A stretch of DNA of 64,000 nt, taken from Methylovirgula sp. (GTDB lineage Bacteria > Pseudomonadota > Alphaproteobacteria > Rhizobiales > Beijerinckiaceae). The stretch lies in assembly GCA_052144065.1 (NCBI GenBank), contig JBKQRA010000144.1, positions 2,488 through 66,487 of the forward strand, read 5' to 3'. The notes under the pieces were generated by a model. The model searched no databases. It was given only the letters and a program-made list of their open reading frames with translations, and was not told the DNA's origin. Of this stretch, positions 9,001 through 26,705 are shown piece by piece (position 1 is the first letter of the stretch; each line of letters starts with the position of its first letter). The position numbers were made by a program, and so were the translations under genes.

Positions 9001-10132
9001 CGCGCAGGGTCATGTGGATGATGCGCTGCAGGCCTATCAAAAGGCGCTGGCGATCGGCGCGCGTTTGGCGAAGTCCGATCCCGACAACGCCGGCTGGCAG
9101 CGCGATCTGGCCTTCTCTTACAACAAGATCGGCGACATGCTCAAACTCCAGGGCCATCTCGCCGATGCGCTCAAATCCTACCAGGCGGGCCTTGTCATTT
9201 CGCAGCGTCTAGCGAAGTCCGATCCAGGCACGACCTTGTGGCAGCGCGACGTCTCCTTCTCCTATACGCGCATCGGCGATGTTCTAGCGGTGCAGGGACA
9301 GATCGACAATGCGCTGCAATCCTATCAAAAGGGCTTTGCGATCATCGATAGGCTCGCCAAGCTCGATCCGGCCGATGCCGGCCTGCAGCGCGAATTGTCT
9401 GTCTTCAACAATAAGCTCGGCGATATGTATGTCGCGCAGGGTAATCTTGCGCAGGCGCTGCAAGCCTATAAGTCCGGCCTCGACATCATGCAGCGGCTGG
9501 TCAAGGCCGATCCCGCCAATGCCGGCTGGCAATTCGATCTCGGCATCAGCAATGAGCGGGTAGGTGACGTTCAAATGAGCCAGAACCAGCCGGCCGAGGC
9601 GTTGAAATCCTATTCCGCCAAGCGCGACATCATCGCCGGACTGGTCAAGGCCGACCCGGGCAATGCCGCCTGGCAACGCGATCTCTCCGTCGCGATCGAA
9701 AAAATCGGCGATGCGCTGAAGACGCAGAGCCGTCTGCCCGAAGCGCTGCAGTCCTATCGGACGTGTCTCGAGATCAGACAGCGGCTCGTCAAGATCGATG
9801 CGGGGAATAGCGGGTGGCAGCGCGATCTGTCGATCGCTTATGAAAAGGTCGGCGATGTGCTGTCCTTGCAGAAGAATAATGCCGACGCGCTGCAAGCCTA
9901 TCAGGCATCATTGCAGATCCGCCGGCTTCTCGCCAAGGACAAGTCGAATGGGCAGGCGCAGATCGATCTTGTCATTGCGCTCGCCAAGGCCGCGGATCTG
10001 TCGGCCGACCCGCGGTCGAATTACCAGGAGGTTCTGACGATCCTGACCGAGCTTGACCAGCAGGGCCGGTTGACGAAAGTTCAGCAAGGCTGGATCGAGT
10101 GGGTCAAGAAGAAGCTCGCCCCATCGCAATAG
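6038..10132 (+). CDS. TIR - nSTAND1 NTPase - TM - TPR-repeat protein (NLR-like transmembrane receptor)
   Basis: TIR IFLSHSSKD...WCLKEY; APFRGLKPL; Walker A GASGAGKSS; Walker B VDQAEELF; LPLLAFTLEQLF; HEALLRQW; charged coil; TM GIGLVAALALAGLAGW; ten 48-aa repeats. Confidence 0.9.
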   Translation: MSRIFLSHSSKDNFEALALRDFLVGEGFDDVFLDLDPDRGIAAGERWERALHAAAKRCEAVIFFISGNWLASGWCLKEYSLARALNKKLFAVIIDPQKAIDDLPPELAGTWQAVNLTAGQDGRIFRVELPGSHEEKHVTFSIDGLRRLKHGLDKAGLDPKFFAWPPEDDPKRAPFRGLKPLEGVDAGIFFGRDAPIVEALDRLRGLREAAAPRFLAILGASGAGKSSFLRAGLLPRLTRDDVNFLPLPPIRPERAALTGETGLLGTLEKLFPHRARAELRAAILAGASGVRPLLAERAGAAFAQTLTDAQQGGRPPLIVFSVDQAEELFRSEGMEESMALLALLRDLAVEDTPAIAVLFAIRSDAYDGLENAKLLEGLPQSTLPLLPMPRGAYMEVIEGPARRYVSAGGTLAIEPRLTQALLEDLEQGGGSDALPLLAFTLEQLFLEYGATGALRYQDYRAFGGLRGAIDKAVTRAFARADADPRIPREQKSREALLRRGLIPWLAGIDPDSKNPRRNVARRSDIPDEARPLIDLLVEERLLSTDTKRIKDPVTGEDTQIVTIEPTHEALLRQWGLLEGWLAEDLGRLATLEGAKRGARDWDANGRADAWLAHHGQRLAEASALIDERPDIAARFDAVDKAYLAACRSKEAEEQAKEEARRREREEEQARRLADAEKLAAANKRTAQRTGIGLVAALALAGLAGWQGYVATQEKQAALQQQQRAEKDFNAAKQAINDLIFNVAERLTDMAGVPIVTIRQILGTAKTTIDTLAASEPDDKELQRSHWAMLVDFVDTYLRAGDLADAKTSADQALVIALELAKDLKNAQAQRDLSVSYNKVGDVFVAEGHLNDALKAYQSGLAAIAPIAKANPGNAGWQFDLGVSNERIGDVQMAQGNLAAALKSFETRRDIVAALVKSDPKTLAWQRDLSVANEKVGDVLVAQGHLDDALKAYQICLEIATRLADADANNAGWQRDLSVVDNKIGDVLVAQGHVDDALQAYQKALAIGARLAKSDPDNAGWQRDLAFSYNKIGDMLKLQGHLADALKSYQAGLVISQRLAKSDPGTTLWQRDVSFSYTRIGDVLAVQGQIDNALQSYQKGFAIIDRLAKLDPADAGLQRELSVFNNKLGDMYVAQGNLAQALQAYKSGLDIMQRLVKADPANAGWQFDLGISNERVGDVQMSQNQPAEALKSYSAKRDIIAGLVKADPGNAAWQRDLSVAIEKIGDALKTQSRLPEALQSYRTCLEIRQRLVKIDAGNSGWQRDLSIAYEKVGDVLSLQKNNADALQAYQASLQIRRLLAKDKSNGQAQIDLVIALAKAADLSADPRSNYQEVLTILTELDQQGRLTKVQQGWIEWVKKKLAPSQ
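8522..9958 (+). repeat. Ten in-frame 144-bp (48-aa) TPR-like repeats
   Basis: Units start at 8522, 8666, 8810 ... 9818, with consensus QRDLSVxxxKxGDVLxxQGxxxDALxxYQxxLxIxxRLAKxDPxNAGW. Confidence 0.9.
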
Positions 10133-10195: not shown

Positions 10196-12088
10196 GTGAC
10201 CGATACCAATACAGCCGAGACCGATGATGCGGTCTTGTCCACCGAGGCGATCATCAAAGCCTGCCGCGAGGCGCTTGTCGCCAATGCGCCGGAAGGCGAA
10301 GTCAGTAAGCGCCTGCGCGCCATCGAGGCCGCCGCCTGCGCCGAACCGGCGCTGCACGCGCAATGGCTTGTCGCCAAAGGCATCGCCACCAATCGGCTGG
10401 GTCTGCGCGGCGAAGCGCTGGGCGATCTCAACGAAGCCGCCGATCTCTTCGCGCAATTGAACGATGCCGCGCATGTCGCCGAGGCCAAGCGTGAAGCCGC
10501 CATTGTGCATTCCTGGTGCGGCGAAGGGCGCGAAGCCGGATTGGCGCTGTTGCGGGCGCTCGGCGAGAGCCTGTCGATCAAGGATATGACGGGGGCGGCG
10601 ATCGCACTCGCCGATGCCGGCCGTCTCGAATTGGAAATGGGCCGGCCCCGCGCTGCGGCCCCTTTGTTCGATCTCGCGCTCAAATTGCCCGGCACCGAAT
10701 TGCCGGCGGTGCAGCGCGGTCGCGCGATGGTCAATCAGTTGCAGGCGCTTGTCGCCTCCGGCCAGATCGATGCGGCCGTGACATTTCGCGCTGAGATGGC
10801 CGCTGAACTCGCTGCCGGCAATGAACGCATGCATCTTTTGACGGCGATCGAGGAGATCCGTTGCGCCAGCGCGCAAGGCGTGTTCGCGGAAGCGCATCGC
10901 GTACTCGATGCGGCGCGTCCGTTGGCGCCGGAGAGCAAAAGGTTCGAAGTCTTCGAACTCGCCGAGGCCGAGGCCGAACTCGCTCTCGCCGAAAAGAATT
11001 TCGTGCTCGCGGACGCAAAGATCAAAGACGTTATCGCCTGCTTCGCAGAGCGCGATCTCAACGGTCGCGAAGTGAAGGCGCGGCTGTTGCGCGCCAAAGC
11101 GCTCGAAGCGTTGCAGCGGCATGACGAAGCCCAACAAGTCCTCTCGACCGCGCTCCGCATCGCCGTGATGCGTGGTCTGATCGGCCACGCCGACGAAGTG
11201 CGCACCGCGCTTGCGGCCTCGGGCGGGTCGGAGAATATGGCGGCGCTCGACAGCTTCGCCGTCAGTCCGGCAGCGCAAGATCCGGGTCGCCGCTTTGTGC
11301 ATCGCAGGGCGCTGGGGGCAGGGGCGCAGGCCAGCGTCTATTGCGCCTATGATCTCGAGCTCGGCGGCGAAGTTGCGGTCAAAAGCGTCGATCTCTCGAC
11401 GCTCTATGATACTACGCAGAGAGAGATGGCGATCGAGACGGCGCGAACCGAGATCGCCGCTGCATCGCGCATCGATCATCCAGGCGTAGCCCGGGTGCGC
11501 GGCTTGATTGTGGAGCCGGCCGGCAATGTCACTTTGATTGAAGATATGATCAACGGCCCGAGCCTGCGCAGCGTCTTGCACGATCCGAGCAAGAAGGATC
11601 TCGTCAAGGGCCAGCGCGGCCTCGATCTCATCAATCGCATTGCCTATGCGCTCTCAGCCATCCATGCGGCGAAGATCGTTCATTGCGATCTCAAACCCGA
11701 CAACATCATGATGGCCGGCCCGACGCAGCCGGTCATCGTCGACTTCGGCATTGCTCTGCTTGGCCTAGGGAAGCGCTCGGGGCGCGGCACGCCGGCCTAT
11801 ATGGCGCCCGAGCAGAAAAGCGGCGGGCGGATCGACGCGCGGACCGATCTCTTCGCGCTCGGTGTCATCGCGCTTGAGTTCTACGGGATAGAGCCGAAAA
11901 TTGGCCGAAATTTTTGGGCACATGACAATGACATTACGGATTCACTGGCTGATGCCGGCGTTCCTTCGCAATGCATCAGCCTAATGCGGCGGCTCGTGGC
12001 GCCGATAAAATGGCTACGACCGCGGTCGGCTTCCGACGTGAGCCGGATCGTCGTTGCGGCTGCGGAGGCTGGGCGCCAATCACGTTGA
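10196..12088 (+). CDS. TPR-like helical domain fused to C-terminal Hanks-type Ser/Thr kinase
   Basis: GAGAQASVY loop, VAVK, HCDLKPDN, DFG, GTPAYMAPEQ, DARTDLFALG; the N-terminal ~360 aa are Ala/Leu/Glu-rich helical repeats; GTG start after GAAAGG; no TM seen. Confidence 0.88.
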   Translation: MTDTNTAETDDAVLSTEAIIKACREALVANAPEGEVSKRLRAIEAAACAEPALHAQWLVAKGIATNRLGLRGEALGDLNEAADLFAQLNDAAHVAEAKREAAIVHSWCGEGREAGLALLRALGESLSIKDMTGAAIALADAGRLELEMGRPRAAAPLFDLALKLPGTELPAVQRGRAMVNQLQALVASGQIDAAVTFRAEMAAELAAGNERMHLLTAIEEIRCASAQGVFAEAHRVLDAARPLAPESKRFEVFELAEAEAELALAEKNFVLADAKIKDVIACFAERDLNGREVKARLLRAKALEALQRHDEAQQVLSTALRIAVMRGLIGHADEVRTALAASGGSENMAALDSFAVSPAAQDPGRRFVHRRALGAGAQASVYCAYDLELGGEVAVKSVDLSTLYDTTQREMAIETARTEIAAASRIDHPGVARVRGLIVEPAGNVTLIEDMINGPSLRSVLHDPSKKDLVKGQRGLDLINRIAYALSAIHAAKIVHCDLKPDNIMMAGPTQPVIVDFGIALLGLGKRSGRGTPAYMAPEQKSGGRIDARTDLFALGVIALEFYGIEPKIGRNFWAHDNDITDSLADAGVPSQCISLMRRLVAPIKWLRPRSASDVSRIVVAAAEAGRQSR

Positions 12089-12183
12089 ACTCAAACGGTG
12101 CTTGCTTTTTGAAAAGCCACCACACACTATAGCGTTGCTCCAGTGCGTGGCTGCATGTCTTTATCTTTATTTGAGTATCGGTG

Positions 12184-14031
12184 ATGATTACAATTAGCCA
12201 CCTGTCCGGGCCGCTCGCCGGAAAAAGCCAAAGCTTTGACGATACTAAAGACAAGATTGAATTTGGACGCGAGTCAGATTGCGACGTCGTCTATCCCGCC
12301 GATGAAGAGACCATAGGCCGCCGGCACTGCGCGCTCGTACGCCAGCTGAGCGATTGGGAGCTTCATATTCATGAGGGCTCGCACGGCCTGCATTTCGTCA
12401 GCGTCAACGGTACGCCGGTTGGCGCCGATCAGCCGGTTGATCCGAATTCCGTATTTCATCTTGGCCGCAAGGATGGTCCGAGCTTCGAAGTGAAATTCGA
12501 TCAGGCCGGCCTGACACCGAACATCGGCGCGACCGGCCGCGAAGACAAATATGTGCCGCCCACCACGCAGCTTCGGCATGTGCGCATTGTCGGCGCCATC
12601 GTCGCCGTTCTCATCGTTGGTGTGCTTGGCTTCTGGTATCGCGCCTATGATGCGCAGCAAAAACAGGTCGCAGCAACAATCGCCAGTCTGACTGAAGACG
12701 AGGCGAAGGCGAAGCAAGCGCTGGCGGACAGCCAGAAGGCGGCCGCCGCCAGCATTTCGCAAAGCATCATCGACAAGGTCTGGAACGCGACCTTCCTCGT
12801 CATTCTGCAGGACGCGCAGGGCCGCAAGACGGCGCTCGGCACGGCCTGGGCGATCGGCCCGAATGTGCTCGCGACCAATGCGCATATCGCCGGCATCTGC
12901 GACGACAAATTTCCGGTGGCCGACCGCAAGATTGCCGAATGCGATGATCTGAAGCCTGGCGACAAACTCCTCGTTCTGCAATCCGGGACCGGCCATACGC
13001 CTTACGAGGTTGTCGGCCACAGCTTCCATCCGGGCTATATCGATTTCCCGAAGCTTGTGTTTGGCCAGGACCCGGCTTTCGTCGCCTCGATCTATAATGG
13101 CACCCCGAGCCAGATCAGCGGCTATGGCTATGATGTCGGCCTCTTGACGATCAAAGAGACTTTGCCGGCCGATCTTGCGCTGCAATTTGCATCGAAGGAT
13201 GAGATCCTGGCGCTGAAGCCCGGCATGCCCGTCGCCTCGGCCGGCTTCCCTTATGAGAATGTCTCAGGCGATCAGGTGCTGACGCTCGCGGCGACGCCGC
13301 AAGTCCATTATGGCAACATCACCGCCTTGACGGATTTTCTGTTCCTGCAGACCGATCCCGCGCATCGCTACCTCGTGCAGCATTCGGTGCCCGAGACGGG
13401 CGGCGGCTCAGGCAGCCCGATCGTTGCGGCCTCCGGCCATATCGTCGCGATCAACAATGCCGGCACCTTCGGTCCGAAGGGCGAGTGGAGCTATCGCGGC
13501 GCGCCGAGCGGCGTCGAGATCAATTATGCGCAGCGCGTCGATATTGTGGACGATATTTTCGCCGGTCGGGCGGCCGCGGCTTTCGAAGCCGACAAGCCCT
13601 ACTGGACTACGCAAATGGCGAATTTCAAGCGCGGTATCGATGTGATCGGCGCTTGGGTCCTGGATAAGGCGAAGCCCGATGCCAAATCAACCGCACAGCT
13701 CGTCTCGACGACGCCGGGTCAGCTGACCACAGGCGATATGCGCATCGATTCGACGACGAAGAAGAATGAGCGCATCAAGGTGCAGACGCTCAATCTGCAG
13801 GCGGGTGTTTCCTATTTCATTTTTGTGTACGCCGACAAGGAAACGCCGATCGCGGTCTATCTCAAGGACGCCAATAACCGGACCCTTGTCAGCAATACTG
13901 ACAGCCAATGGTATCCCGGCCTGTCCTTCAAGCCGACGGCATCGGGGCCTTTATCCCTAATGATCGTCGGTCCCGACCGTGATACGACTTACACAACAAA
14001 AGTGTATTCCTGGCAGCAATCGAATTCCTAA
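12184..14031 (+). CDS. FHA-like - TM - trypsin-like serine protease - C-terminal beta (PPC-like) domain, paralog 1
   Basis: FGRESDCDV...RHCAL...VNGT (FHA-like); TM IVGAIVAVLIVGVLGFWY; catalytic TNAH, YDVGLL, GGSGSP; upstream in-frame GTG at 12181. Confidence 0.85.
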   Translation: MITISHLSGPLAGKSQSFDDTKDKIEFGRESDCDVVYPADEETIGRRHCALVRQLSDWELHIHEGSHGLHFVSVNGTPVGADQPVDPNSVFHLGRKDGPSFEVKFDQAGLTPNIGATGREDKYVPPTTQLRHVRIVGAIVAVLIVGVLGFWYRAYDAQQKQVAATIASLTEDEAKAKQALADSQKAAAASISQSIIDKVWNATFLVILQDAQGRKTALGTAWAIGPNVLATNAHIAGICDDKFPVADRKIAECDDLKPGDKLLVLQSGTGHTPYEVVGHSFHPGYIDFPKLVFGQDPAFVASIYNGTPSQISGYGYDVGLLTIKETLPADLALQFASKDEILALKPGMPVASAGFPYENVSGDQVLTLAATPQVHYGNITALTDFLFLQTDPAHRYLVQHSVPETGGGSGSPIVAASGHIVAINNAGTFGPKGEWSYRGAPSGVEINYAQRVDIVDDIFAGRAAAAFEADKPYWTTQMANFKRGIDVIGAWVLDKAKPDAKSTAQLVSTTPGQLTTGDMRIDSTTKKNERIKVQTLNLQAGVSYFIFVYADKETPIAVYLKDANNRTLVSNTDSQWYPGLSFKPTASGPLSLMIVGPDRDTTYTTKVYSWQQSNS

Positions 14032-14076
14032 TTTTCTCGAGCGGCAACGCAGGCCGCAATTGTTTTGAGTTTTGCA

Positions 14077-15915
14077 ATGATCACAATAACGCATCTCTCT
14101 GGGCCGCTCGCCGGGCAAAGCCGGACGTTCGACGATAGCAAGGGCAAGATCGAATTCGGCCGTGAGTCGGGCTGCGATGTCGTCTATCCCGAGGAAACGG
14201 ATATCGTCGGGCATCGGCATTGCGCCTTGAAGTTTGAAGACGGTGACTGGCTGCTGCACTTGCACGAAAGCTCGCGCGGTATGCCGCATGTCGTTTTCGT
14301 GAATGGCACGCCGGGCGACACGGGGCAGGCGATCAATCCGAATTCCGTCCTTCATCTTGGCCGTAAGGATGGTCCCGGCTTCAGCTTCAAATTCGATCCG
14401 GTCGGGTTGGAGGAGAGCATGCTGCGGACGCGGGTCGAGGCGAAAGTCTCATCGACGCGCGACCTCTACCGCCGCCTCGCTGTGACGGGCGGCGTCATCG
14501 CGACGCTGCTGATCGTTGTCATTGGCGGCTGGATCGCCAAAAACATCGCGGATGAAAAGCAAAACGCTGCGATCTTTGCGAGCCTCGCCAAAGATCAGCA
14601 GAATGCCGCGGCGGCGATCGCGAATATGCGGACGGCCGCGGTCGCGAGCTTCTCGCCGAGCCTCATCGATCACATGGTGCACGCGACTTTCCTCGTCTAC
14701 AAGCAGGATGCGCAAGGCCGGCAATTCGCCGATGGAACGGCCTGGGTGATCGGCCCGGATCTGTTGGCGACAAACGCCCATATTGCGGCCTTATGCAGCG
14801 ACTTCCAGCCGGGTGACGACAAGCTCGCTTCTTGCGATCAGCTTGACGCTGGGCAGAAGCTTTATGTGCGACAACCCGGAGCGGGCGGAGCGTCCTATGA
14901 AGTCATCGGCCATAGCTTTCATCCGGGCTATGTCGCATTTCCGCGCTTCGTCCTGGCCAAGGATCCGGTGATTTCCACTTTTGCCGGGCCAAGACAGGTC
15001 GGCACGGATGGCTATGATGTCGGACTCTTGCGCATCAAGGGACAGTTCCCGGCGGATCTCGCGCTCAAAGTCGCCTCGAAAGAGGAACTGATGGAGTTGA
15101 AGCAGGGGACGCCACTCGCCTCGGCGGGCTATCCGAGCGAAAACATCTTCAACAGTGAGGTGCTTACGGTCGCTGCCACGCCGCAAGTCCATTACGGCAA
15201 TATCAGCGCGCTGACGGATTCGCTCTTTCTGCCGACCGATGCGGCGCATAATTTCCTCATTCAAAATTCAATTCCGATGACAGGAGGCTCGTCGGGCAGT
15301 CCGGTTATTAACACGGCAGGCCATGTCGTCGCCCTGCTGAACTCCGCTAATTTCGGTCCGGCGGCAGGCGGCTGGTCGCGTGGTGCGCCGAGCGGCGCCG
15401 AGATCAATTATGCGCAGCGCGCCGATTTCGTCGCCGATCTTCTCGCCGGCACGGCGCAAGACGTGTTTGCGAATGATTTGACTTATTGGGCCGGCCAGAT
15501 CGCCAAATTTCAGCGCGGCATCGATCTGATGAGCAAGACGCTGGTCGATCAAGCGACGCAAGGCTCGAAGGCGACGGCGCAGCTCGCGAGCGAAACGCAT
15601 GGCAAGCTTGTCGCCGACGACATGCGCATCGACTCTAAGACCAATCGCAAAGAGCGCATAAAGATCGAAAAAATCAATTTTTCGGCCGGCGTGCATTATT
15701 TGATCTTGATCTATGCGGAGAATGACGCCGCGGTTAGTCTTTATCTCAAAGACGCCAGCAACCAGACGATCGCCAACAATACCAATGCGGGATGGTACCC
15801 GAGCGTCTCCTTCAGCCCGGCGGCGAATGGGACCGGCTCTATCCTCATCGTCGGTCCGGATGCCGATACGGCCTATACGACGCGGATCTACAGCTGGCAG
15901 GCGTCCGGCTCATAA
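14077..15915 (+). CDS. FHA-like - TM - trypsin-like serine protease - C-terminal beta domain, paralog 2
   Basis: Collinear with the 12184 gene (MITITHLSGPLAG..., TNAH, YDVGLL, GSSGSP, GAPSGAEINYAQR); start chosen by alignment to paralog 1. Confidence 0.85.
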   Translation: MITITHLSGPLAGQSRTFDDSKGKIEFGRESGCDVVYPEETDIVGHRHCALKFEDGDWLLHLHESSRGMPHVVFVNGTPGDTGQAINPNSVLHLGRKDGPGFSFKFDPVGLEESMLRTRVEAKVSSTRDLYRRLAVTGGVIATLLIVVIGGWIAKNIADEKQNAAIFASLAKDQQNAAAAIANMRTAAVASFSPSLIDHMVHATFLVYKQDAQGRQFADGTAWVIGPDLLATNAHIAALCSDFQPGDDKLASCDQLDAGQKLYVRQPGAGGASYEVIGHSFHPGYVAFPRFVLAKDPVISTFAGPRQVGTDGYDVGLLRIKGQFPADLALKVASKEELMELKQGTPLASAGYPSENIFNSEVLTVAATPQVHYGNISALTDSLFLPTDAAHNFLIQNSIPMTGGSSGSPVINTAGHVVALLNSANFGPAAGGWSRGAPSGAEINYAQRADFVADLLAGTAQDVFANDLTYWAGQIAKFQRGIDLMSKTLVDQATQGSKATAQLASETHGKLVADDMRIDSKTNRKERIKIEKINFSAGVHYLILIYAENDAAVSLYLKDASNQTIANNTNAGWYPSVSFSPAANGTGSILIVGPDADTAYTTRIYSWQASGS

Positions 15916-17736: not shown

Positions 17737-20052
17737 TCAGGGCTTTGTGATCAAATCGGCGGCTTGCCAAGCGGCGAGGCCGCCTCGGTACCAATAGACG
17801 TTGGAATAGCCCATCTGCAACGCACGCAGCGCTGCATTATAGCCTTCCCATGATTTGGAATCTCTACTGAAGAATATGATAGCGGTGTTGGAGGACGTAA
17901 CTGCCTTCGACAAATCATCGAAAAGCTGCCGTTGGACTTTATCCTTAGCATCGAATGTTCCTCCCGCGCCGGCATAAGGCCAGCGAAGAGAAGACGGAAT
18001 TGTCCGTGCGTGGGGCTCACTATCAACGTCTATAAGCAATATAGATACTTTCCTGTCGGTGCCAGGGAGCTTTCCGTTTGCGAGCATATGATAAAGGTCT
18101 TGTGTTGTAATGGCATTGCCGCCAGGAATTGTTCGCGGTGTAGGACCGTTTAATTTATTCGAGAGTGCGTCTGTCGGAGCAATCTGGTCGTCTTTGTCTT
18201 CGTCTTGAAACGTTCCGACGGGCGGCGGTCCAAACTCGGCGACGATCTTGGCATTCAGCTCTTTGGCGCTTTGCTCCCCCTCATATCGCGCCTGTATCTC
18301 CTTTAGCTGCTTCACCTGCTCCTGCAACTTAACTTGTGTGCTAGCAAGTACAGCGTTCATGTTGTCGAGCGCAGCCTGACTTTTGTTTAACTGATCGATC
18401 GTTTTGTCGAGCTTGTCCTTTTGTTGCTTGAGTTCGCCGATTGTTGTTTTTAGCTTTTCGTTCGCGTGCTGAGCTACCCACCATTCCGTTCCAGCGGTCA
18501 CGGACGATGCGATCAGAATGGCAAAAATTCCCGCGCCCGATATCCAGAATAGACGCCGCCGCGCTGTTTCGGCCTTCTCGCTCTTTTCGAGAAAAGCGAC
18601 AGCATCCTTGAAATGCCCACCGTAGCGCTGAGCCCAGGCTTCGTTGGGCTTTGTCTCCTCGTACCAAGCAACAAGATTGGCAAGCTCGCGGCCGCGGATC
18701 GGTTCGGCATCCCCCATGCGGTCCTTGAGTCGACGCCAGTTCTGCGCCGCTGTCGTTTCATCGTGCAGCCATTCCGCCATTTTTTTCCACTGGCGGATCA
18801 AGCTCTCATGGCTGATGTCGATCCATTGATCGGCATCGATCGGCACGCGTTTCTCTGGGCCAGGATCGCGCAGTTCTGGTGCGAGAAAATTGCAGCCCGG
18901 CGCGCAGAAGGTATAGAGCACGTCTTCGACCGCGCGGACATTGCCGTCGCAGAGCGCGATGAGTTCGCCGAAGCGCTGCGGTCGTCGCACGGCATCGGCG
19001 ACGCTCGTGCCTGAAACGAGCGCGCGAAAGATCTTTTCGGCTGTGCCGGCGAGACCTTTCTTCGTGAGTTCCCCCAGCAAAATATTGCCGTGCGTATTGA
19101 GCGCGCCGCCCAAGCCGCCGATCGCTTTGTAGTCCGAGAGCCGTAGCTGAATATAGCCGCCGCTGCCCGTATCCTTCGCATCGAGCCAAAGCCGGTTCAG
19201 CGTATATTGCAGCAGCGGCAATTGATCCGCGCGACGGACGAGGCGATCGAGCTGATCGGCGGCCCCGCCATCGTCCCACGGCGCGAAATTGGCGAGATCG
19301 TTGAGGATCTGAGTGACTAGAGGCTCTTCGACCTTGATACCGCAGACTTCTGCCGGACCGACGATGGCGCGGCGGCACTGTTCGCGCGTCATCCGCGGCG
19401 TGAGGACCATGCCTTTGCTGATCGTCTCGGCAAGGCCCTCCATCAAGGCGCAGGCGCCGAGATATTCGGAGCGCATGGTGAGGGTGACATAGATCGGAAA
19501 TTCGGGGCTGTGTGCGCTCTCGAGCAGCAATGCGGAGAAGGCTTCAGACTCTTCCTTGCCGGCATAGTCTTGATAGCGGAACAATTCTTCGAACTGATCG
19601 ACGAGCAGCAGCAGATTGGTCTTGGGCTTCGTCGGCAGATTGCCGTCCTGGCACCATTCGATGATCGAACGTGGACCGCGGGCGAGAAAGCCACGCAATA
19701 TCTTCGTCTCGATGTCAGTCGGCTCTTTGCCCTTGGCAGTCACCTTGAGGAGTTCGCGCGCCAGATTGGTGAGCGGCGTGCTGCCGGGCCTAAAATCGAT
19801 GACGCGCCAGCGCGCGCCGGCCTGTTCCATGAGGCCGATTTCGAGCGCTTCGAGAAGGCCGGTCTTGACGATCGAGGATTTGCCGGTACCGGACGAGCCG
19901 AGGACGGCGAGAAAGCGCGTCTCGGCGAGACGATCGACGAGCGTATGGATGCAGTCTTCACGGCCGAAGAAGAGATCGGTCTCGTCGCGACGGAACGATC
20001 TTAGGCCGGGGTAGGGCGCGCGCGCGACCTCGCCCGCTATCTCGTCAAACAT
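17737..20052 (-). CDS. nSTAND1 NTPase - TM - coiled coil - rhodanese-like domain
   Basis: APYPGLRSF; Walker A GSSGTGKSS; Walker B VDQFEELF; LPLLQYTLNRLW; ISHESLIRQW; TM LFWISGAGIFAILIASSV; K/Q heptads; C-terminal PTPRTIPG...YNAALRALQMGYSNVYWYRGGLAAW. Confidence 0.88.
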   Translation of the reverse strand: MFDEIAGEVARAPYPGLRSFRRDETDLFFGREDCIHTLVDRLAETRFLAVLGSSGTGKSSIVKTGLLEALEIGLMEQAGARWRVIDFRPGSTPLTNLARELLKVTAKGKEPTDIETKILRGFLARGPRSIIEWCQDGNLPTKPKTNLLLLVDQFEELFRYQDYAGKEESEAFSALLLESAHSPEFPIYVTLTMRSEYLGACALMEGLAETISKGMVLTPRMTREQCRRAIVGPAEVCGIKVEEPLVTQILNDLANFAPWDDGGAADQLDRLVRRADQLPLLQYTLNRLWLDAKDTGSGGYIQLRLSDYKAIGGLGGALNTHGNILLGELTKKGLAGTAEKIFRALVSGTSVADAVRRPQRFGELIALCDGNVRAVEDVLYTFCAPGCNFLAPELRDPGPEKRVPIDADQWIDISHESLIRQWKKMAEWLHDETTAAQNWRRLKDRMGDAEPIRGRELANLVAWYEETKPNEAWAQRYGGHFKDAVAFLEKSEKAETARRRLFWISGAGIFAILIASSVTAGTEWWVAQHANEKLKTTIGELKQQKDKLDKTIDQLNKSQAALDNMNAVLASTQVKLQEQVKQLKEIQARYEGEQSAKELNAKIVAEFGPPPVGTFQDEDKDDQIAPTDALSNKLNGPTPRTIPGGNAITTQDLYHMLANGKLPGTDRKVSILLIDVDSEPHARTIPSSLRWPYAGAGGTFDAKDKVQRQLFDDLSKAVTSSNTAIIFFSRDSKSWEGYNAALRALQMGYSNVYWYRGGLAAWQAADLITKP

Positions 20053-21611
20053 AGCTCGCCAACAAATTTCTGAATCAAATCGTCTGTTGCGCCGTTGCGA
20101 TAATCAATTGGATCGAAACTTGTCGCCATGCCGAGTTCGTCGGGATGGGCGCCGGGAGCCAGAAGCAATTTCTTGTAACGCGGAGGCTTGTCGCGCCGCG
20201 CCGCAAGCTTGATGTAACGGCGCAACTGCGCTCGTACCCAGTGGGGCGGCGCTTCGCCGAACACGAGGAGAAGACCGTCGCAATTGATCCAATTCTCGTC
20301 GATCTCTTCGTCCTTTTGCTTGGCGTTGCCTTTGTAGCTGGCCATAAAGGCATTGCGCCGGCGGGACTGAAAAGCCTTCAGCAGCGATTTTGCGAGATCC
20401 TGATCATCGTCATAGGCGTTGATGAAGAAGGCGCTCTCGTCGACCGGCGCTTCGGCGTTCGCCTGCTCGGCGGGCGCTTCCGCCAACCGGCGCTTGGTTT
20501 CTTCCTCGCGCCGGCGGGCCTCTTCTTCCCGGCGCTTTGCGGCCGCAGCCTCCGCCGCCTGCCGTTCGAAGGTGCCTTTGATTTCCTTTAGAAATTCTTG
20601 CAGGCCCATGACCCGCACGTCGGGGCCGCTCAGCAATTGCTTGTCGTAGTGGGTCACGGCTTCGGGATTGATGTCGGGCCGATGCCATTGCAGCGTCGGC
20701 ACGCCACGGCGTTTGGCGGCGGCATATTGGAAGACGGAGTAGCTTTGCGAGGGCTCGGCCTCGCTTTGCTTGAGATCGCTCGGCCGTTTGGAAGGCACCT
20801 GGCTCAGCAGCTGGACGAAGAGATCGGCCTTTTCGAGATCGGCCCGCACCGCCTTGGCGAAATCATTGCCGCCACCCGGATAGTCGCCATCGGGAAGGAC
20901 GCGGGCGCCATATTGTTCCAGATAGGTGCGGACCTGCAACGCTTCGTCATAGAGATCATCGGTCGCTTGCGCGAGCAAGACCGTCTTGCCGCTCAGCGGC
21001 AACGATGCGGCCTTCGCCGAGGCGGGCGCCGCACCGGTTGAGGCGCGCGCCTTGAGTTCGCGCAAGAGGCTGACGCAATTCTCAGCGAGTTCCGCGATGC
21101 TCTTGCCATAGCTGTCGCTGTTGCTGGGCTTCAGCGTGTAATCGATCTTGGTCTCCAGATCCTTGTAATAGAAGCGGGTGCGCTTGATGCCCATGCCTTT
21201 GGGACCGGCAAGCAGGCCGCTGATCTGCGGATTTTCCTCGAAGGGCAGAATTTCGATCGCGACAATCCGATTGATGCTGGATAACGCACTGTCGCCTTCC
21301 CGCACGGCATCGTTGAAAGCGGTCAGCTCCTTGATCGTCCAGTCGCGCGCGACATAGGCGCGCGAAAGAACCGGGATGAAGATCGCCGATCCTTTGGCAT
21401 TTTCGACCAGCGAAGCCAGTTCTTGATGCGCCTCGAGATTCGAATTGTCGAAGAAGAGGGAGACATCGTCGCTGCCGAGGCGCTTGCGCAGATGGCTTTC
21501 GAAATTGTTGCGGAATTCGCTAACCCATCTGACTTTTTGCTCATCCGGCTCATTGTCGAGATGCGTATAGCTGATGAAAATGTCGTGCAAGAATCCTGGA
21601 ACAAAAGTCAT
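20037..21611 (-). CDS. Protein with three TIR-like domains
   Basis: Domain 1 DIFISYTHLD...SRAYVARDWTIKEL; domain 2 TVLLAQAT...ADLFVQLLS...YSVFQY; domain 3 AFFINAYDDD...CDGLLLVFGEAPPHWVRAQL; overlaps the start of the nSTAND1 gene by 16 nt. Confidence 0.78.
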   Translation of the reverse strand: MTFVPGFLHDIFISYTHLDNEPDEQKVRWVSEFRNNFESHLRKRLGSDDVSLFFDNSNLEAHQELASLVENAKGSAIFIPVLSRAYVARDWTIKELTAFNDAVREGDSALSSINRIVAIEILPFEENPQISGLLAGPKGMGIKRTRFYYKDLETKIDYTLKPSNSDSYGKSIAELAENCVSLLRELKARASTGAAPASAKAASLPLSGKTVLLAQATDDLYDEALQVRTYLEQYGARVLPDGDYPGGGNDFAKAVRADLEKADLFVQLLSQVPSKRPSDLKQSEAEPSQSYSVFQYAAAKRRGVPTLQWHRPDINPEAVTHYDKQLLSGPDVRVMGLQEFLKEIKGTFERQAAEAAAAKRREEEARRREEETKRRLAEAPAEQANAEAPVDESAFFINAYDDDQDLAKSLLKAFQSRRRNAFMASYKGNAKQKDEEIDENWINCDGLLLVFGEAPPHWVRAQLRRYIKLAARRDKPPRYKKLLLAPGAHPDELGMATSFDPIDYRNGATDDLIQKFVGELCLTR

Positions 21612-21966
21612 GGCGCAGCAATAACTCCCGCCCTGTCGAAGCAGCTCGGCTCCGAAGTCTCATACGCATTATGCACGCCTTGGCTGAGCCGAGGCAAGGG
21701 GAACGCCGCGCTTCGGGCCGGAACATTGCGGCGACCGGTAGCAGTTTGCGTGAGTCTTGCGGTCACAATCGTTGGACCGAGCTTCGGATCGAGGCGGCAA
21801 GGCTCGTGGTGGAGGCGCTGCCGCTTTCGTCTGCTTGTCACAGATTGATTGCAAGGCTGAGCCAACGTTGCGCCAGGACCGGAAATAGGCTACCTCCTAG
21901 ACCGTATCTGTGCATGCGCATGCACGCACAGATACGTCGTTTCGTTTCGTAAAATGGTTGCCCACA

Positions 21967-22497
21967 ATGCGCATTTTCAGCCCGGGAATTTCAAGCCTCA
22001 TTTTGGCCGGCGGCATTGTGATCGCCGGCTCGGATCTGGGAACGGCGCAGCCGGCACCCCAGAATACGCCGGCGCCGGCCACCCAGACGGACATCGTCAC
22101 CTCGATCACGCCGGAAGGCCTCGCCGCGATCATGCGCGATGCCGGCTATAAGGCCGATGTCTACGAATACGGCACGACAACCAAACATAAAGCCATCGCC
22201 ACGGCGATGGAGGGCTATAAAGTCCGGGTCTATTTTTATAGTTGCGATGCCCAGAACAAGTGCGGTTCGCTCAACTTCGAAACCTCATTTACGAAGAGCC
22301 CGAATTTTACCCTCGCGCTGGCGAATAAATGGAACACGGATCACCGCTATACGAAGCTCTATATTGATCCGGCCGATCAATCGCTCACATTCGACTTCGA
22401 CATCTTCATTTATGGTGGTGTCACCAATGCGACGATCAAAGACGCCGTGACTCTCTACGACAGCACGCTCGGCGATCTGGCGAAGTTCCTGCCCTGA
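21967..22497 (+). CDS. Secreted YbjN-domain protein
   Basis: Signal-like N-terminus, Pro/Gln linker, then PEGLAAIMRDAGY...FYSCD...CGSLNF...ANKWNTDHRYTKLYID...GGVT. Confidence 0.75.
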   Translation: MRIFSPGISSLILAGGIVIAGSDLGTAQPAPQNTPAPATQTDIVTSITPEGLAAIMRDAGYKADVYEYGTTTKHKAIATAMEGYKVRVYFYSCDAQNKCGSLNFETSFTKSPNFTLALANKWNTDHRYTKLYIDPADQSLTFDFDIFIYGGVTNATIKDAVTLYDSTLGDLAKFLP

Positions 22498-22681
22498 GCC
22501 TTGGTTGGGACGGCACCCCAAATCGGCGCCGACCCCGTGGCCTCCTGCGTCCAGATATTTCCATGCTCTGCCTGACCCCGATCCGCGAGCGCGCGCGACC
22601 GGACGCGCCACTCTCCTCCCCAATTTGGGGTAGACTGCGATGCGTCGTGAGTGGGCGGCGCGTGACGGACGGAGGGTGCCA

Positions 22682-24646
22682 GTGACGGAAGGGGCGTCGT
22701 CGCATTTCCCACAGCTTGCATTGCGCATCGGCATTACCGGCGCGCGCAGCCTCGATGCGGCCCGCATCGACGATCTGCGGAAAAAGCTGCGCGACGTGCT
22801 GGGTTCGGTTAAAGCCGACATGCGGCGGCTCGCCGAAGACAAAGACGTGCGCGCGCATTACGCCGGCGTGGAGACGGGCGAGCCCTGGTTGCGGTTCGTT
22901 TCGCCTTTGGCGCGCGGAGCCGACCGTCTCGCGGCCGAGACCGCCCTCGATCTTGGCTATGATCTCTATGTCCCGATGCCTTTCGACCGGGCGGAATATG
23001 AGAAGGATTTCCGGGGCGCCCAAGATCCGCATGAGCCGCCGCTGTCGGCGGCCGAGGATCTCGCGCAATTCACAACGCTGCTGCAGCGCGCGGGGCAATC
23101 CGGCCAAGCTTGGCTCACCCTCGACGGCGGTCGGGAGGAAGAAAACCGCGCCTATGAAGCTGTCGGTCGCTTCGTCGTGCGCCACAGCGACATTCTGATT
23201 GCCATTTGGGATGGCAAGCCGAGCAACGGCCGCGGCGGCACAGCGGAGATCGTCGAATATGCGCTGACAAGCGGCGTGCCGGTCTGGTGGATCCATGCCA
23301 CCGAGGCAAGAGACCCTGTCTGGCTCACCAGCCAGCTGGATTTGCGCGATCCGCGCGCGCCGACGATTGAGCCCCTTGCGGCTGTGCGGCGCTATATCGA
23401 TCGGCAAATTCCGCCGCCGCCGCCCGTGTCGCGCGAACGCGAGGGGCTGGTTGAAGCCGTTGCGCGCTTCGGTCAGCGGCGAAATGTGTCGCCACTTGAT
23501 GTCTATTTCGGCGAAGATGGGAAGCCGCCGGCGTTTTGGGCCAGCGCCTATTCCGCGATGATGCGTTGGGCAGTGCCGCCGACTCCCCCGCCGTCGTCCC
23601 CCATTTCATCGCTTCCCAAACCGTCATCGCCGACTGGCGCCGCCGACACTTATTGGCGCGAGCGTTATACGCCGGCCGATCTGTGCGCCGGCCAATATGC
23701 GAGCCGGTATCGTTCGGCCTATGTCTGGCTGTTTGCTTTTGCGACGGCGACGCTCGTGTTCGGCGCGCTCGCCGCGGTGGCGCATGGCGTGAAGCCCTTG
23801 GTCATTGCGTCCATCGCGCTTGAATTGGCGATGCTGCTGTTGATCTGCGTGGTGGTGAATTCGGCCATCCGTGGCGATTGGCATGAGCGCTTTGTCGAAT
23901 ATCGTCTGCTCGCAGAATTATGTCGCAAGCAGCAGGTCTTGGCATTGCTCGGCAGCGGCGTATCGCTGGGCGCCGTCGGCCGCATGATCCTGCGCGAAAT
24001 CGAAATCGCAGCAAAACAGAAAGATAAAGGCGTCCACCCGGTGGGGCACGTGCCGGATCGCGCCGCCTGGGTTGCCTGGCTCTTCACCGCTTGGGAACGC
24101 GCCGCGCCGATGCCGACGGGCGAGCTCGCTGCCTCATTGCATACGGTCGTCCATGAGCAGGTGATGCAAGGATTGATCGACGAGCAATTGCATTATCATC
24201 GCGAGCGTGGGGCGCGGTCGGTGCATGCCGATAAGAAATTCTCGAAATTCGGTCAGTGGTGCTTCATCGCGGTGATTGTCTGCGTGCTGTGCAAATTCGC
24301 CGTGGTAGGGTTCATTCAACCGCTGGATGAGGATAAAGCCTCTTTCGTCCGCGAGGCGGGTGAAATCGGCGTTCTGTTTCTGACATGGCTTGCGATCGTG
24401 CTCCCGGCCGTCTCGGCCGCTTTTTTCGGCATTCGCAGCTATGCGGAACTGCAGCTCCTCGCCGAGCAGTCGCGGCATATGGTCGATGAGCTTGAAAGCG
24501 CCAAGCGGCGGATCGAGCGCATTAATTTGAAGCGCCCGCTGTCAGCTGAAGATATCGGCGCCGAAACCCATGGCGTTGCGACCTTGATGCTGCAGGATCT
24601 CGACGGATGGTCGCGCTTGTTCAAAGTCAAAGCGATCGAACCTTAG
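22682..24646 (+). CDS. SLOG-like domain fused to two SLATT (DUF4231-like) 2TM modules
   Basis: IGITGAR, VSPLARGADRLAAE, VPMPF, YEAVGRFVVRHSDILIAIWDG...GRGGTAEIVEYA...GVPVWWI; SLATT-like TM pairs ending WHERFVEYRLLAE and AELQLLAEQSRHM; GGAGG RBS before GTG 22682. Confidence 0.8.
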   Translation: MTEGASSHFPQLALRIGITGARSLDAARIDDLRKKLRDVLGSVKADMRRLAEDKDVRAHYAGVETGEPWLRFVSPLARGADRLAAETALDLGYDLYVPMPFDRAEYEKDFRGAQDPHEPPLSAAEDLAQFTTLLQRAGQSGQAWLTLDGGREEENRAYEAVGRFVVRHSDILIAIWDGKPSNGRGGTAEIVEYALTSGVPVWWIHATEARDPVWLTSQLDLRDPRAPTIEPLAAVRRYIDRQIPPPPPVSREREGLVEAVARFGQRRNVSPLDVYFGEDGKPPAFWASAYSAMMRWAVPPTPPPSSPISSLPKPSSPTGAADTYWRERYTPADLCAGQYASRYRSAYVWLFAFATATLVFGALAAVAHGVKPLVIASIALELAMLLLICVVVNSAIRGDWHERFVEYRLLAELCRKQQVLALLGSGVSLGAVGRMILREIEIAAKQKDKGVHPVGHVPDRAAWVAWLFTAWERAAPMPTGELAASLHTVVHEQVMQGLIDEQLHYHRERGARSVHADKKFSKFGQWCFIAVIVCVLCKFAVVGFIQPLDEDKASFVREAGEIGVLFLTWLAIVLPAVSAAFFGIRSYAELQLLAEQSRHMVDELESAKRRIERINLKRPLSAEDIGAETHGVATLMLQDLDGWSRLFKVKAIEP

Positions 24647-25377: not shown

Positions 25378-25622
25378 CACAAATTCTGCGGAGGGGAGGG
25401 TTGCGGACGAACGCATTTTGTCTTTCCTCGCATTGCGGGCCGCTCGGGCCAAACGCAGCTGAAGACGGACGCGATCCGTTTTCTCGAGGCCGATTTTTAA
25501 CGCCGGCGCCCGCGAACGCATGTCCTTTTTCGAAAACCCGCCGCCTGTCCGTCTCCTGCAAACGATGCCGCGCCGCCTGCCTTTGGAGGCGGCTGCGCCA
25601 GAGATGTTTTCAGGAGGTCTTT

Positions 25623-26705
25623 ATGGGCGAGCCCTGGTTACGGTCGACCGCAATTCTTTGGACGGCGCTTTTGTCGTTCTTTTCGCCAAACTCCGGCGCG
25701 AGCGCCGAAGGCTATAAAATTTCGCAGCCGCTGACGCATGACAATTTGACCCTCTATCTCGTGCATGGACGATCGGCACCGGGTCCCGTGCCGATGACCT
25801 TGGAAGAGGCGCTGACGCGTCAAAGCGTGCGGGTCGCCGAGATCGGCAGCGTCAATGCGCTGGCCGTCGAGAATTTTGGCGACCGCGAGGTCTTCATCCA
25901 GTCGGGCGATATCGTCACCGGCGGCAAGCAGGATCGCGTCTTCGTGTCGAGCCTGGTGCTGCCGCCGCATTCCGGCCGGCAGATACTCGCCGTTTTCTGC
26001 GTCGAGCCCGGCCGCTGGACCGCGCGGCAAGGCACGCAGGACGGGCATTTCGTGGCAGCCGCCGCGGCGATGCCGTCGCCGCAGGCACGCACCATTCTCT
26101 ATGAAGCGGTTGCGGCACCGCCCGTCACGGATTCGCCAGTCCCCGATGCGCCGTCCGGCGCCAGCCTGCAGCAGCGCATGTGGGCGCAGACCGCCGAGGT
26201 ACAAAGCAAGCTCAGCCGGCAATTGCAGGGAAGCGCCGCGGATCCCGCGTCGCCGACAAGTCTCGCCCTGTCGCTCGATCTCGAGAAGCTGAAGGTCGCG
26301 CAAAAATCCTTCGTCGATGCGCTCGCCCCGCATGGCCTGCGCGACAGCGACGTCGTCGGCTATGTGATCGCGGTGAACGGCAAAGTGAGCAAGGCCGAGA
26401 TCTATGCCTCGAACGCGCTGTTCCGGGCGATGTGGATGAAGCAATTGCGGGCCGGCGCGGCCGAGGCCATTCAGGCCAAGACGTCCGACAAGACGTCCGA
26501 CAAGACTTCGGAAAAGGCAGCGCCGCCGTCCTCCGCCGCTGTCGAGAAGCTCCTGGATCTCGGCAGCTTCGGCAAGCCGATCGAAAAGCCTCTGAGCGTC
26601 TCCGGAACTGAGATCATCCGCGAAGCGCCGAGAATGGTCTTTGTCGAAACGCGCCGCGGCGACGGCAGCTTCGTGCTGCGCAACTATCTTGCAAGGGCGT
26701 CGTGA
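25623..26705 (+). CDS. Secreted ARPP-1 (DUF6569)-like protein
   Basis: CAGGAGGT RBS; signal peptide; NLTLYLVHG, LEEAL...V.EIGSVNALAVEN...FIQSGDIVTGGKQDRV, VFCVEPGRW, QQRMWAQ, VGYVIAVNG...AEIYASNALF. Family recognised from memory. Confidence 0.6.
   Translation: MGEPWLRSTAILWTALLSFFSPNSGASAEGYKISQPLTHDNLTLYLVHGRSAPGPVPMTLEEALTRQSVRVAEIGSVNALAVENFGDREVFIQSGDIVTGGKQDRVFVSSLVLPPHSGRQILAVFCVEPGRWTARQGTQDGHFVAAAAAMPSPQARTILYEAVAAPPVTDSPVPDAPSGASLQQRMWAQTAEVQSKLSRQLQGSAADPASPTSLALSLDLEKLKVAQKSFVDALAPHGLRDSDVVGYVIAVNGKVSKAEIYASNALFRAMWMKQLRAGAAEAIQAKTSDKTSDKTSEKAAPPSSAAVEKLLDLGSFGKPIEKPLSVSGTEIIREAPRMVFVETRRGDGSFVLRNYLARAS
26478..26513 (+). repeat. 12-bp in-frame tandem repeat x3 (KTSD KTSD KTSE)
   Basis: AAGACGTCCGAC AAGACGTCCGAC AAGACTTCGGAA. 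Confidence 0.8.

Follow-up and report, generated by a model that had tools for sequence, protein, structure and literature searches.

The 64,000-nucleotide stretch of the Methylovirgula sp. contig JBKQRA010000144.1 analyzed here (hereafter, the window) contains two overlapping genes that encode a protein with three TIR-superfamily domains (P0001, domains D1 to D3) and a predicted membrane-anchored receptor of the nSTAND1 type (P0002). Only D1 retains the Glu residue that is catalytic in TIR NADases, the equivalent position in D2 and D3 being occupied by a conserved Gln, and pairing of the three-domain gene with a downstream nSTAND1 gene is obligate across the loci compared. We lean towards the interpretation that the two genes form an NLR-like module for conflict or immunity, in which a membrane STAND sensor would be combined with a three-TIR output arm.

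Organization and distribution of the gene pair

Both genes are located on the reverse strand. The upstream gene, defined by its open reading frame and translation, occupies positions 20037-21611 including the stop codon and encodes P0001 (524 amino acids); the downstream gene, at positions 17737-20052 including the stop codon, encodes P0002 (771 amino acids), which has Pfam matches to nSTAND1 and Rhodanese. A preliminary description of this locus had proposed that the STAND start overlaps the upstream TIR gene by 16 nucleotides, and direct reading of the sequence confirms it: the two genes have ATGTTTGACGAGATAG in common (positions 20037-20052, reverse strand), where the TIR frame stops and the STAND frame starts. 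The ATG at position 20052 is the sole candidate STAND start ahead of the conserved PYPGL motif, which begins at residue 13 of P0002, in line with the earlier estimate of about 11 preceding residues. The translational coupling proposed at the same time is borne out by the recurrence of the pair and of its start/stop overlap in about 29 loci distributed over several phyla, and because of this recurrence the arrangement exceeds what chance would produce. The predicted coupling, combined with strict co-inheritance, provides strong evidence that the two proteins work together.

Clustered at 90% identity, the family of P0001 has about 110 members, which with few exceptions are full-length matches of 470-530 amino acids, and the D1-D2-D3 layout is present in 216 of 258 proteins examined. 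A search with the D2 profile retrieved 2,093 representative clusters at 50% identity (E<=0.001), 1,030 of them at E<=1e-10. An nSTAND1 gene lies directly downstream of the three-domain gene in loci L001-L009 and L039, as well as in all 25 informative loci among the 27 that were found in GTDB species genomes. The contexts of this pairing include Xanthobacteraceae-type loci, where the STAND protein carries TPR repeats, an Acidobacteriota genome, in which WD40 repeats take their place, and the Methylovirgula-like clade of the window, where it has a transmembrane helix and a rhodanese-like domain. The two reading frames overlap by 1-16 nucleotides at 23 of 29 junctions, most commonly through a 4-nucleotide RTGA overlap (18/29); a 16-nucleotide overlap occurs at three of the 29 junctions, loci L008 and L009 sharing it with the window, and most of the remaining junctions are within 12 nucleotides.

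Several variants of the cassette have acquired extra N-terminal modules, namely CHAT, EAD1-trypsin, protein kinase or AAA_35. In particular, the order of genes in locus L039 is EAD1-trypsin-TIRx3, nSTAND1, and another EAD1-trypsin gene, a layout that matches the 'EAD principle' of effector recruitment (PMC8195603), and such additional N-terminal effectors fit the role of an effector platform. Loci L019, L031, and L032 have two nSTAND1 genes in succession, the additional one lying after the first partner STAND. An apparent D2-D3-nSTAND1 fusion, P0260 (locus L007, positions 593-2407), was rejected, since on its contig D1 and D2 are also separated and the STAND and WD40 genes are interrupted; this fusion is probably an indel artefact of the assembly.

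Three TIR-superfamily domains of P0001

The division of P0001 into three TIR-like domains, suggested in the preliminary description, is upheld by the domain analysis, which identified D1 as TIR_2, D2 as DUF4062/NIR-like and D3 as TIR_2-like. D1 (residues 1-195, positions 21027-21611) is a canonical TIR domain with a C-terminal extension and the motif W91xxxE95, the E95 codon being at positions 21327-21329. It exceeds the Pfam gathering scores of both TIR_2 (54.7 bits against a cut-off of 28, E=1.8e-14) and TIR (32.3 bits against 21.3, E=1.1e-7). D2 (residues 205-345, positions 20577-20999), a putative pseudo-enzyme assigned by DUF4062 matches in relatives and by its fold model, has the motif Y291xxxQ295 with the Q295 codon at positions 20727-20729. 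It is joined by a long helical linker rich in Ala, Glu, and Arg (residues 346-392, positions 20436-20576) to D3 (residues 393-524, positions 20040-20435), a second putative pseudo-enzyme, of the TIR_2-like type according to TIR_2 matches in relatives and hhalign, with the motif W458xxxQ462 and the Q462 codon at positions 20226-20228. All three motifs (W91-T-I-K-E95-L, Y291-S-V-F-Q295-Y, and W458-V-R-A-Q462-L) were verified at the codon level on the reverse strand.

The AlphaFold2 model of P0001, built on an alignment of 99 sequences, has a mean predicted local distance difference test (pLDDT) score of 90.6 and consists of three successive beta-alpha units with long joining helices; DSSP assigns a helix to residues 337-378 of this model, and pLDDT is low at residues 382-387 of the linker. 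The best Foldseek matches of the full-length model in PDB are the TIR domains of RPP1, RUN1, SARM1, and MyD88, the matched region of the query being unreported, so that this comparison makes no call on D2 or D3. The model of D2 by itself (pLDDT 96) has as its top match the RPS4/RRS1 TIR heterodimer (4c6t), followed by nucleoside 2-deoxyribosyltransferases (NDT), DNPH1, SARM1, the SPARTA TIR-APAZ protein, and AbTir; the best matches range from E=1.6e-4 to 5e-3, with probability 1.0 and TM-scores of 0.55-0.70.

At the sequence level, D2 of the window protein has a weak match to TIR_2 only (18 bits, E=0.003). Its orthologs in P0078 (26.8 bits), P0097 (30.2 bits), and P0258 (28.0 bits) exceed the DUF4062 (PF13271) cut-off of 24.7, and together with P0132 they span 26.3-30.2 bits. 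Among 26 family members, D2 matched DUF4062 in 11 (E<=0.1) and TIR_2 in eight. Similarly, a Pfam scan gave no match for D3 of the window protein, and orthologous D3 domains matched TIR_2 (PF13676) in 11 of 20 cases, the best with E=2.8e-7 over profile positions 1-120 of 122; of ten members scanned singly, the top TIR_2 score was 26.7 bits, just under the cut-off of 28. Searches of PDB sequences with the D2 and D3 profiles found nothing. The Pfam matches in relatives and the Foldseek results for D2 indicate that D2 and D3 are both TIR-superfamily folds, D2 being probably of the DUF4062/NIR type. Thus, on the point raised earlier as potentially decisive, namely whether D2 and D3 are TIR-fold at all, D2 has the TIR/NDT fold by Foldseek, and D3 is connected to the family by TIR_2 in its relatives and by its hhalign match to D1.

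Conserved Glu and Gln in the catalytic position

The catalytic Glu of TIR NADases sits in the helix after the third strand. In the AlphaFold2 model E95, Q295, and Q462 are each located five to seven residues into the corresponding helix. Comparison of wide alignments by hhalign placed W91 and E95 of D1 opposite W458 and Q462 of D3 (P=1.6e-3, 105 columns), and Q295 of D2 opposite Q462 (P=2.5e-4); the comparison of domains using close relatives alone was not significant. In the alignment of 99 close relatives, the position of E95 is Glu in all 99 sequences, that of Q295 is Gln in 98, and that of Q462 is Gln in 93. In the wider family of about 250 representatives, E95 is Glu in 209 of 219 sequences and Q295 is Gln in 249 of 253, with Glu in just one; Q462 is Gln in 189 of 226, the rest being mainly His, Arg, Trp, Val, and Phe, and Glu falls outside the six commonest residues. 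These profile alignments and family counts agree with the initial observation that D1 alone keeps the catalytic Glu, and D2 and D3 have Gln at the equivalent position. With its WxxxE motif, D1 looks catalytically competent, and an NADase activity may be expected for it.

According to two 2026 preprints, DUF4062, renamed NIR, is a TIR-like NADase whose catalytic Glu occupies this position (doi 10.64898/2026.05.01.722283; 10.64898/2026.09.04.749371). The residue corresponds to E97 in KpSwz, E108 in PsAvs2, and E1008 in TEP1. The E108Q substitution in PsAvs2, that is, the replacement seen here at the same position, abolishes NIR/DUF4062 defence (doi 10.64898/2026.09.04.749371). Since the catalytic Glu position is a conserved Gln in both domains, and this very change is inactivating in NIR, D2 and D3 are in all likelihood naturally inactivated domains kept by selection. 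D2 would accordingly be a DUF4062 relative by fold with its catalytic Glu replaced, and so, presumably, not a functional NADase member of that family. The label of pseudo-TIR previously given to D2 is therefore retained as far as an inactivated TIR-superfamily domain is meant, but not in the sense of a plain TIR domain, given its DUF4062/NIR affinity.

D2 is the most conserved of the three domains by mean pairwise identity (55%, compared with 51% for D1 and 46% for D3), and therefore it is likely a maintained pseudo-enzyme and not a product of decay. Besides Q295, it has further near-invariant residues T217, D219, Y244, Q267, and W309, which in the model are at the C-terminal ends of strands 1-4. 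In this fold, the C-terminal strand ends form the usual ligand crevice. The location of these residues in the model suggests a preserved pocket.

P0002, a predicted membrane STAND receptor

Residues 13-445 of P0002 (positions 18718-20016) form the nSTAND1 NTPase module (PF20703, 279 bits, E=1e-82). Its Walker A motif GSSGTGKS (G52-S59, positions 19876-19899) and Walker B motif (LLLVDQFEE within LLLLVDQFEE, around D152) are intact, and G52, K58, and D152 are conserved. The window also encodes, at positions 6038-10132 of the forward strand, a fused TIR-nSTAND1-TPR paralog, which keeps the motif WCLKE, and in BLASTP residue 11 of P0002 aligns to residue 172 of this protein, exactly where its TIR domain and linker end. 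Since nSTAND1 begins at residue 13, aligned just past the TIR and linker of the fused paralog, P0002 lacks any N-terminal effector. The 'effector-less' character of the STAND proposed in the preliminary description holds for its N-terminus; it does not extend to a bare STAND, since past nSTAND1 P0002 continues into a predicted membrane-spanning helix, a linker that is probably helical, and a rhodanese-like domain devoid of the Cys pair.

The predicted transmembrane helix (residues 501-519, positions 18496-18552) has a score of 1.89 in a Kyte-Doolittle window of 19 residues and is preceded by RRR. Based on the positive-inside rule, the NTPase is predicted to be cytoplasmic and the rhodanese-like sensor periplasmic (N-in/C-out). 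A helical or coiled-coil stalk probably lies on the outer side at about residues 525-600 (positions 18253-18480), as suggested by weak matches to coiled-coil families at residues 527-605; in relatives this part differs in both length and sequence. Almost all partner STANDs have a hydrophobic helix 30-70 residues past nSTAND1. In the fused paralog, the corresponding location is occupied by a helix of borderline hydrophobicity (residues 691-709, Kyte-Doolittle score 1.57), with basic residues before it.

The C-terminal domain of P0002 (residues 624-770, positions 17743-18183) is rhodanese-like, probably of the CXXCW type (TIGR03865), with 31.9 bits for Pfam Rhodanese (cut-off 22.2, E=1.9e-7) and 62 bits for TIGR03865 (E=4.6e-17, under the cut-off of 128). 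Both Cys residues of CXXCW are replaced in the corresponding loop FFSRDSKSW. Homologs linked to caspases, and some of those linked to STANDs, retain the Cys pair (P0120-P0122, P0128, and those of L025, L035, and L036), whose loss marks the window clade. Across the family, the distal domains of partner STANDs are variable (TPR, WD40, or rhodanese-like), about a third of the proteins ending with a rhodanese-like domain. P0120-P0122 are caspase (Peptidase_C14) proteins with two rhodanese-like CXXCW domains close to the outer domain of P0002; the occurrence of this module in both caspase and STAND proteins indicates the same sensor module connected to two different death-type outputs.

Possible mechanism and alternative interpretations

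In the mechanism that we modestly favor, P0002 would be a type-II single-pass STAND protein of the inner membrane, with a cytoplasmic nSTAND1 module and a periplasmic stalk carrying the Cys-less rhodanese-like sensor, and P0001 would be its output arm, produced in a fixed ratio with P0002 via the overlapping upstream gene. A periplasmic or envelope signal would switch the STAND to an NTP-bound oligomer, on which the D2-D3 pseudo-enzyme cassette, possibly binding NAD-type ligands, would dock P0001. The D1 domains clustered in this way may form a composite TIR active site, and the cleavage of NAD+ would then result in growth arrest; alternatively, in the window clade, an ADP-ribose (ADPR)-derived signal may go to a neighboring SLOG/SLATT-like membrane protein. 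The trigger, the docking on the STAND, the cleavage of NAD+, and the form that the output takes are all inferred.

Several observations weigh against this mechanism. The STAND has neither a TIR nor another known adaptor domain for homotypic docking, and its putative topology is derived solely from hydropathy and the positive-inside rule. The near-invariant pocket residues suggest that D2 does more than dock, and they would suit a pseudo-enzyme that binds a ligand no less well than they would an inert scaffold. The sole apparent D3-nSTAND1 fusion, that of P0260 in L007, is on a frameshift-ridden contig. No relatives of the pair were found in plasmid and viral collections, and the locus is chromosomal and syntenic in the Methylovirgula-like clade, which makes a housekeeping role in signaling possible. 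The stretch was matched only in soil and sediment DNA metagenomes, the pair belonging to uncultured soil bacteria. Finally, PADLOC v2 matched no complete system with either protein and gave weak partial matches to PDC-S66, RT-TIR (for D1), and mad8 (for the P-loop).

The main rival interpretation, a possibility to which we give clearly less credence, is that D2 and/or D3 are ligand-binding pseudo-enzymes that accept NAD+, ADPR, or a TIR-made signal and gate D1 allosterically, another surface being in contact with the STAND; tentatively, this gating may consist in substrate sensing, feed-forward activation, or product inhibition. Mutants of a catalytic Glu (E-to-Q or E-to-A) usually still bind their substrate, and it is Gln, not a random residue, that is fixed at this position (249/253 in D2 and 189/226 in D3), in a most conserved domain D2 whose T217, D219, Y244, Q267, and W309 are near-invariant at the strand ends of the model. 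The substitutions E-to-Q or E-to-A at this position are known to abolish activity or defence (10.64898/2026.09.04.749371; 10.64898/2026.05.01.722283). However, the conserved surfaces could equally be protein interfaces, and ligand binding by itself does not explain the strict pairing with nSTAND1. Another alternative, which appears improbable, assigns the pair to physiological envelope or redox signaling, where the rhodanese-like domain would report a periplasmic metabolite and the TIR would tune NAD metabolism or signaling. Relatives of this domain accompany catabolism dependent on pyrroloquinoline quinone, and the match of the sensor to this family, the chromosomal and syntenic location beside sigma/anti-sigma, kinase, and protease genes, and the lack of a mobile-element or phage link in the plasmid and viral collections searched are all compatible with such a role. 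Yet the sensor is freely swapped between TPR, WD40, and rhodanese-like domains, the catalytic Cys pair is lost in the window clade, and the cassette gains caspase-like, trypsin, and EAD modules. Sensor swapping and accretion of effector modules are hallmarks of conflict systems (PMC8195603), and since sensors swap and death-type effectors accrete in this family, a physiological role is less likely.

The second rival, which we consider doubtful, is a Thoeris-like pathway, in which D1 would make a signal without depletion of NAD+, the neighboring protein P0274 (668 amino acids, positions 22640-24646, forward strand) would read the product and permeabilize the membrane, and ARPP-1, encoded at positions 25401-26705, would process ADPR moieties; ARPP proteins are predicted to act on ADPR-derived ribose (PMC9503650). 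The family of P0274 includes more than 360 clusters, of which one member, P0369, is named a SLATT-domain protein in UniRef, and has the invariant residues G31xTGxR, SPLAxGxDR, and WDGxxxxGxGGT. As a lead, P0274 may be described as a candidate N-terminal SLOG-like and C-terminal SLATT-like protein with two transmembrane segments, the SLOG assignment resting on motifs. Its homologs flank the pair in all window-clade loci and in the distant Acetobacteraceae loci L026 and L030, one is tightly paired with an unrelated TIR gene in the Acidobacteriaceae contig L010, and another precedes a TPR-kinase and a trypsin gene in L011. On the other hand, P0274 has no match in Pfam, PADLOC, or PDB sequences, synteny in close relatives is weak evidence, and most TIRx3-nSTAND1 loci lack a P0274 homolog within 7 kb, so that the pair must function alone in them; for this reason P0274 is likely an accessory component at most. 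A composite of these ideas, which we regard as unlikely, would have an envelope cue cause the membrane STAND to assemble P0001, D2 and D3, as nucleotide-binding regulators, bind NAD+ or TIR products and thereby license D1, and the product open the adjacent SLOG/SLATT-type effector; this would amount to a Toll-like pathway in bacteria, assembled from other components.

Comparison with known systems

The closest described analog of the pair is the computationally defined TIR-ParA (FxsC/FxsT) dyad, which has inactive TIR domains. Like the pair, these systems have an upstream gene with an active TIR and an inactive TIR (FxsC-C), and the inactive TIRs have been proposed to aid multimerization (bioRxiv 10.64898/2026.10.19.760177). 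They also share the coupling of this gene to an NTPase gene downstream, whose sensors vary; among its forms are nSTAND1 fusions as well as a type-II subtype, termed 'receptor-like', with a single transmembrane segment and extracellular sensors. In contrast to TIR-ParA, P0002 has no ParA domain, nSTAND1 starting from residue 13, and P0001 has two pseudo-domains in both of which Gln is fixed, D2 being the DUF4062/NIR-like one. D1 scored 38.4 bits against FxsC_Nterm (NCBIfam NF040588), far under the cut-off of 130, and none of the FxsC C-terminal models matched P0001.

The logic of a STAND NTPase combined with a sensor and an NAD-cleaving output of the TIR superfamily is shared with Avs and other NLR-like STANDs that have a fused TIR or NIR domain (PsAvs2, doi 10.64898/2026.09.04.749371). 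Here, however, the effector is a polypeptide of its own, in which three TIR-fold domains are arranged in tandem and the NIR-like domain is naturally E-to-Q. In addition, the STAND is predicted to be membrane-anchored with an extracytoplasmic sensor, whereas the sensing of phage proteins by characterized Avs proteins is cytoplasmic. Thoeris, which consists of a TIR protein (ThsB) and a SLOG protein (ThsA), resembles the window locus, where the TIR protein has as a neighbor P0274, a candidate fusion of a SLOG-type receptor with a membrane effector, but lacks both a STAND sensor and pseudo-TIR domains, and most TIRx3 loci in turn lack P0274.

Two eukaryotic systems offer partial parallels. An outward sensor with a single transmembrane helix, followed by intracellular clustering of a separate TIR protein, is reminiscent of the TLR/MyD88 pathway. 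However, TLRs recruit MyD88 by TIR-TIR contact and P0002 has no TIR domain; the MyD88 TIR is non-catalytic and signals via death domains and kinases, whereas D1 looks catalytic. The MyD88-like adaptor logic put forward in the preliminary description is thus acceptable as a loose analogy only, and not as homology between the pathways, because the receptor is devoid of TIR. In the plant RPS4/RRS1 system, an active TIR is similarly accompanied by a catalytically inactive TIR partner, and the heterodimer 4c6t of these proteins is the top Foldseek match of D2; the two plant TIRs belong to separate NLRs, whereas in P0001 the active and inactive domains are in tandem in a protein without an NTPase.

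The pair represents a widespread variant of bacterial NLR-like systems, whose family is unnamed, has no PADLOC model, and includes no tested member. It provides a natural E-to-Q version of both the TIR and the NIR/DUF4062 NADase, held under strong selection beside an active TIR, and hence a clean system for studying the role of inactive TIR domains as an assembly template, docking module, or nucleotide sensor. If the predicted topology holds, the partner STANDs would be NLR-like switches responding to the envelope or periplasm instead of the cytoplasm. Because sensor and output are on separate proteins, reconstitution and domain-swap work should also be easier.

Genes adjacent to the pair

In the window clade, the pair is flanked on one side by a divergent YbjN gene, P0274, and ARPP-1, and on the other side by genes for a DUF1080 protein, FHA-trypsin proteases, and a TPR-kinase. 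The YbjN-family gene (positions 21910-22497, forward strand) is divergent from the TIR gene, an arrangement also observed in the more distant rhodanese-type loci L018, L019, and L021. The divergent intergenic region contains, upstream of the TIR gene, a weak sigma-70-like promoter match (positions 21668-21697, reverse strand, 9 of 12 consensus positions), which is suggestive only. The ARPP-1 domain (E=5.7e-51) belongs to a protein encoded on the forward strand and is also found near the pair in L008 and L009.

Positions 10196-15915 of the forward strand encode a TPR(MalT-like)-Ser/Thr kinase and two paralogous FHA-trypsin proteins. Genes for this kinase and FHA-trypsin set also flank the pair in L005, L008, and L009 and follow the P0274 homolog in L011. 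Finally, the protein encoded at positions 2288-3640 of the reverse strand combines MAP3K_TRAF_bd (E=4.5e-43) and TPR-S, its N-terminal region matches a TIR-effector model of PADLOC (E=1.9e-9), and a homolog is located at the edge of L009.

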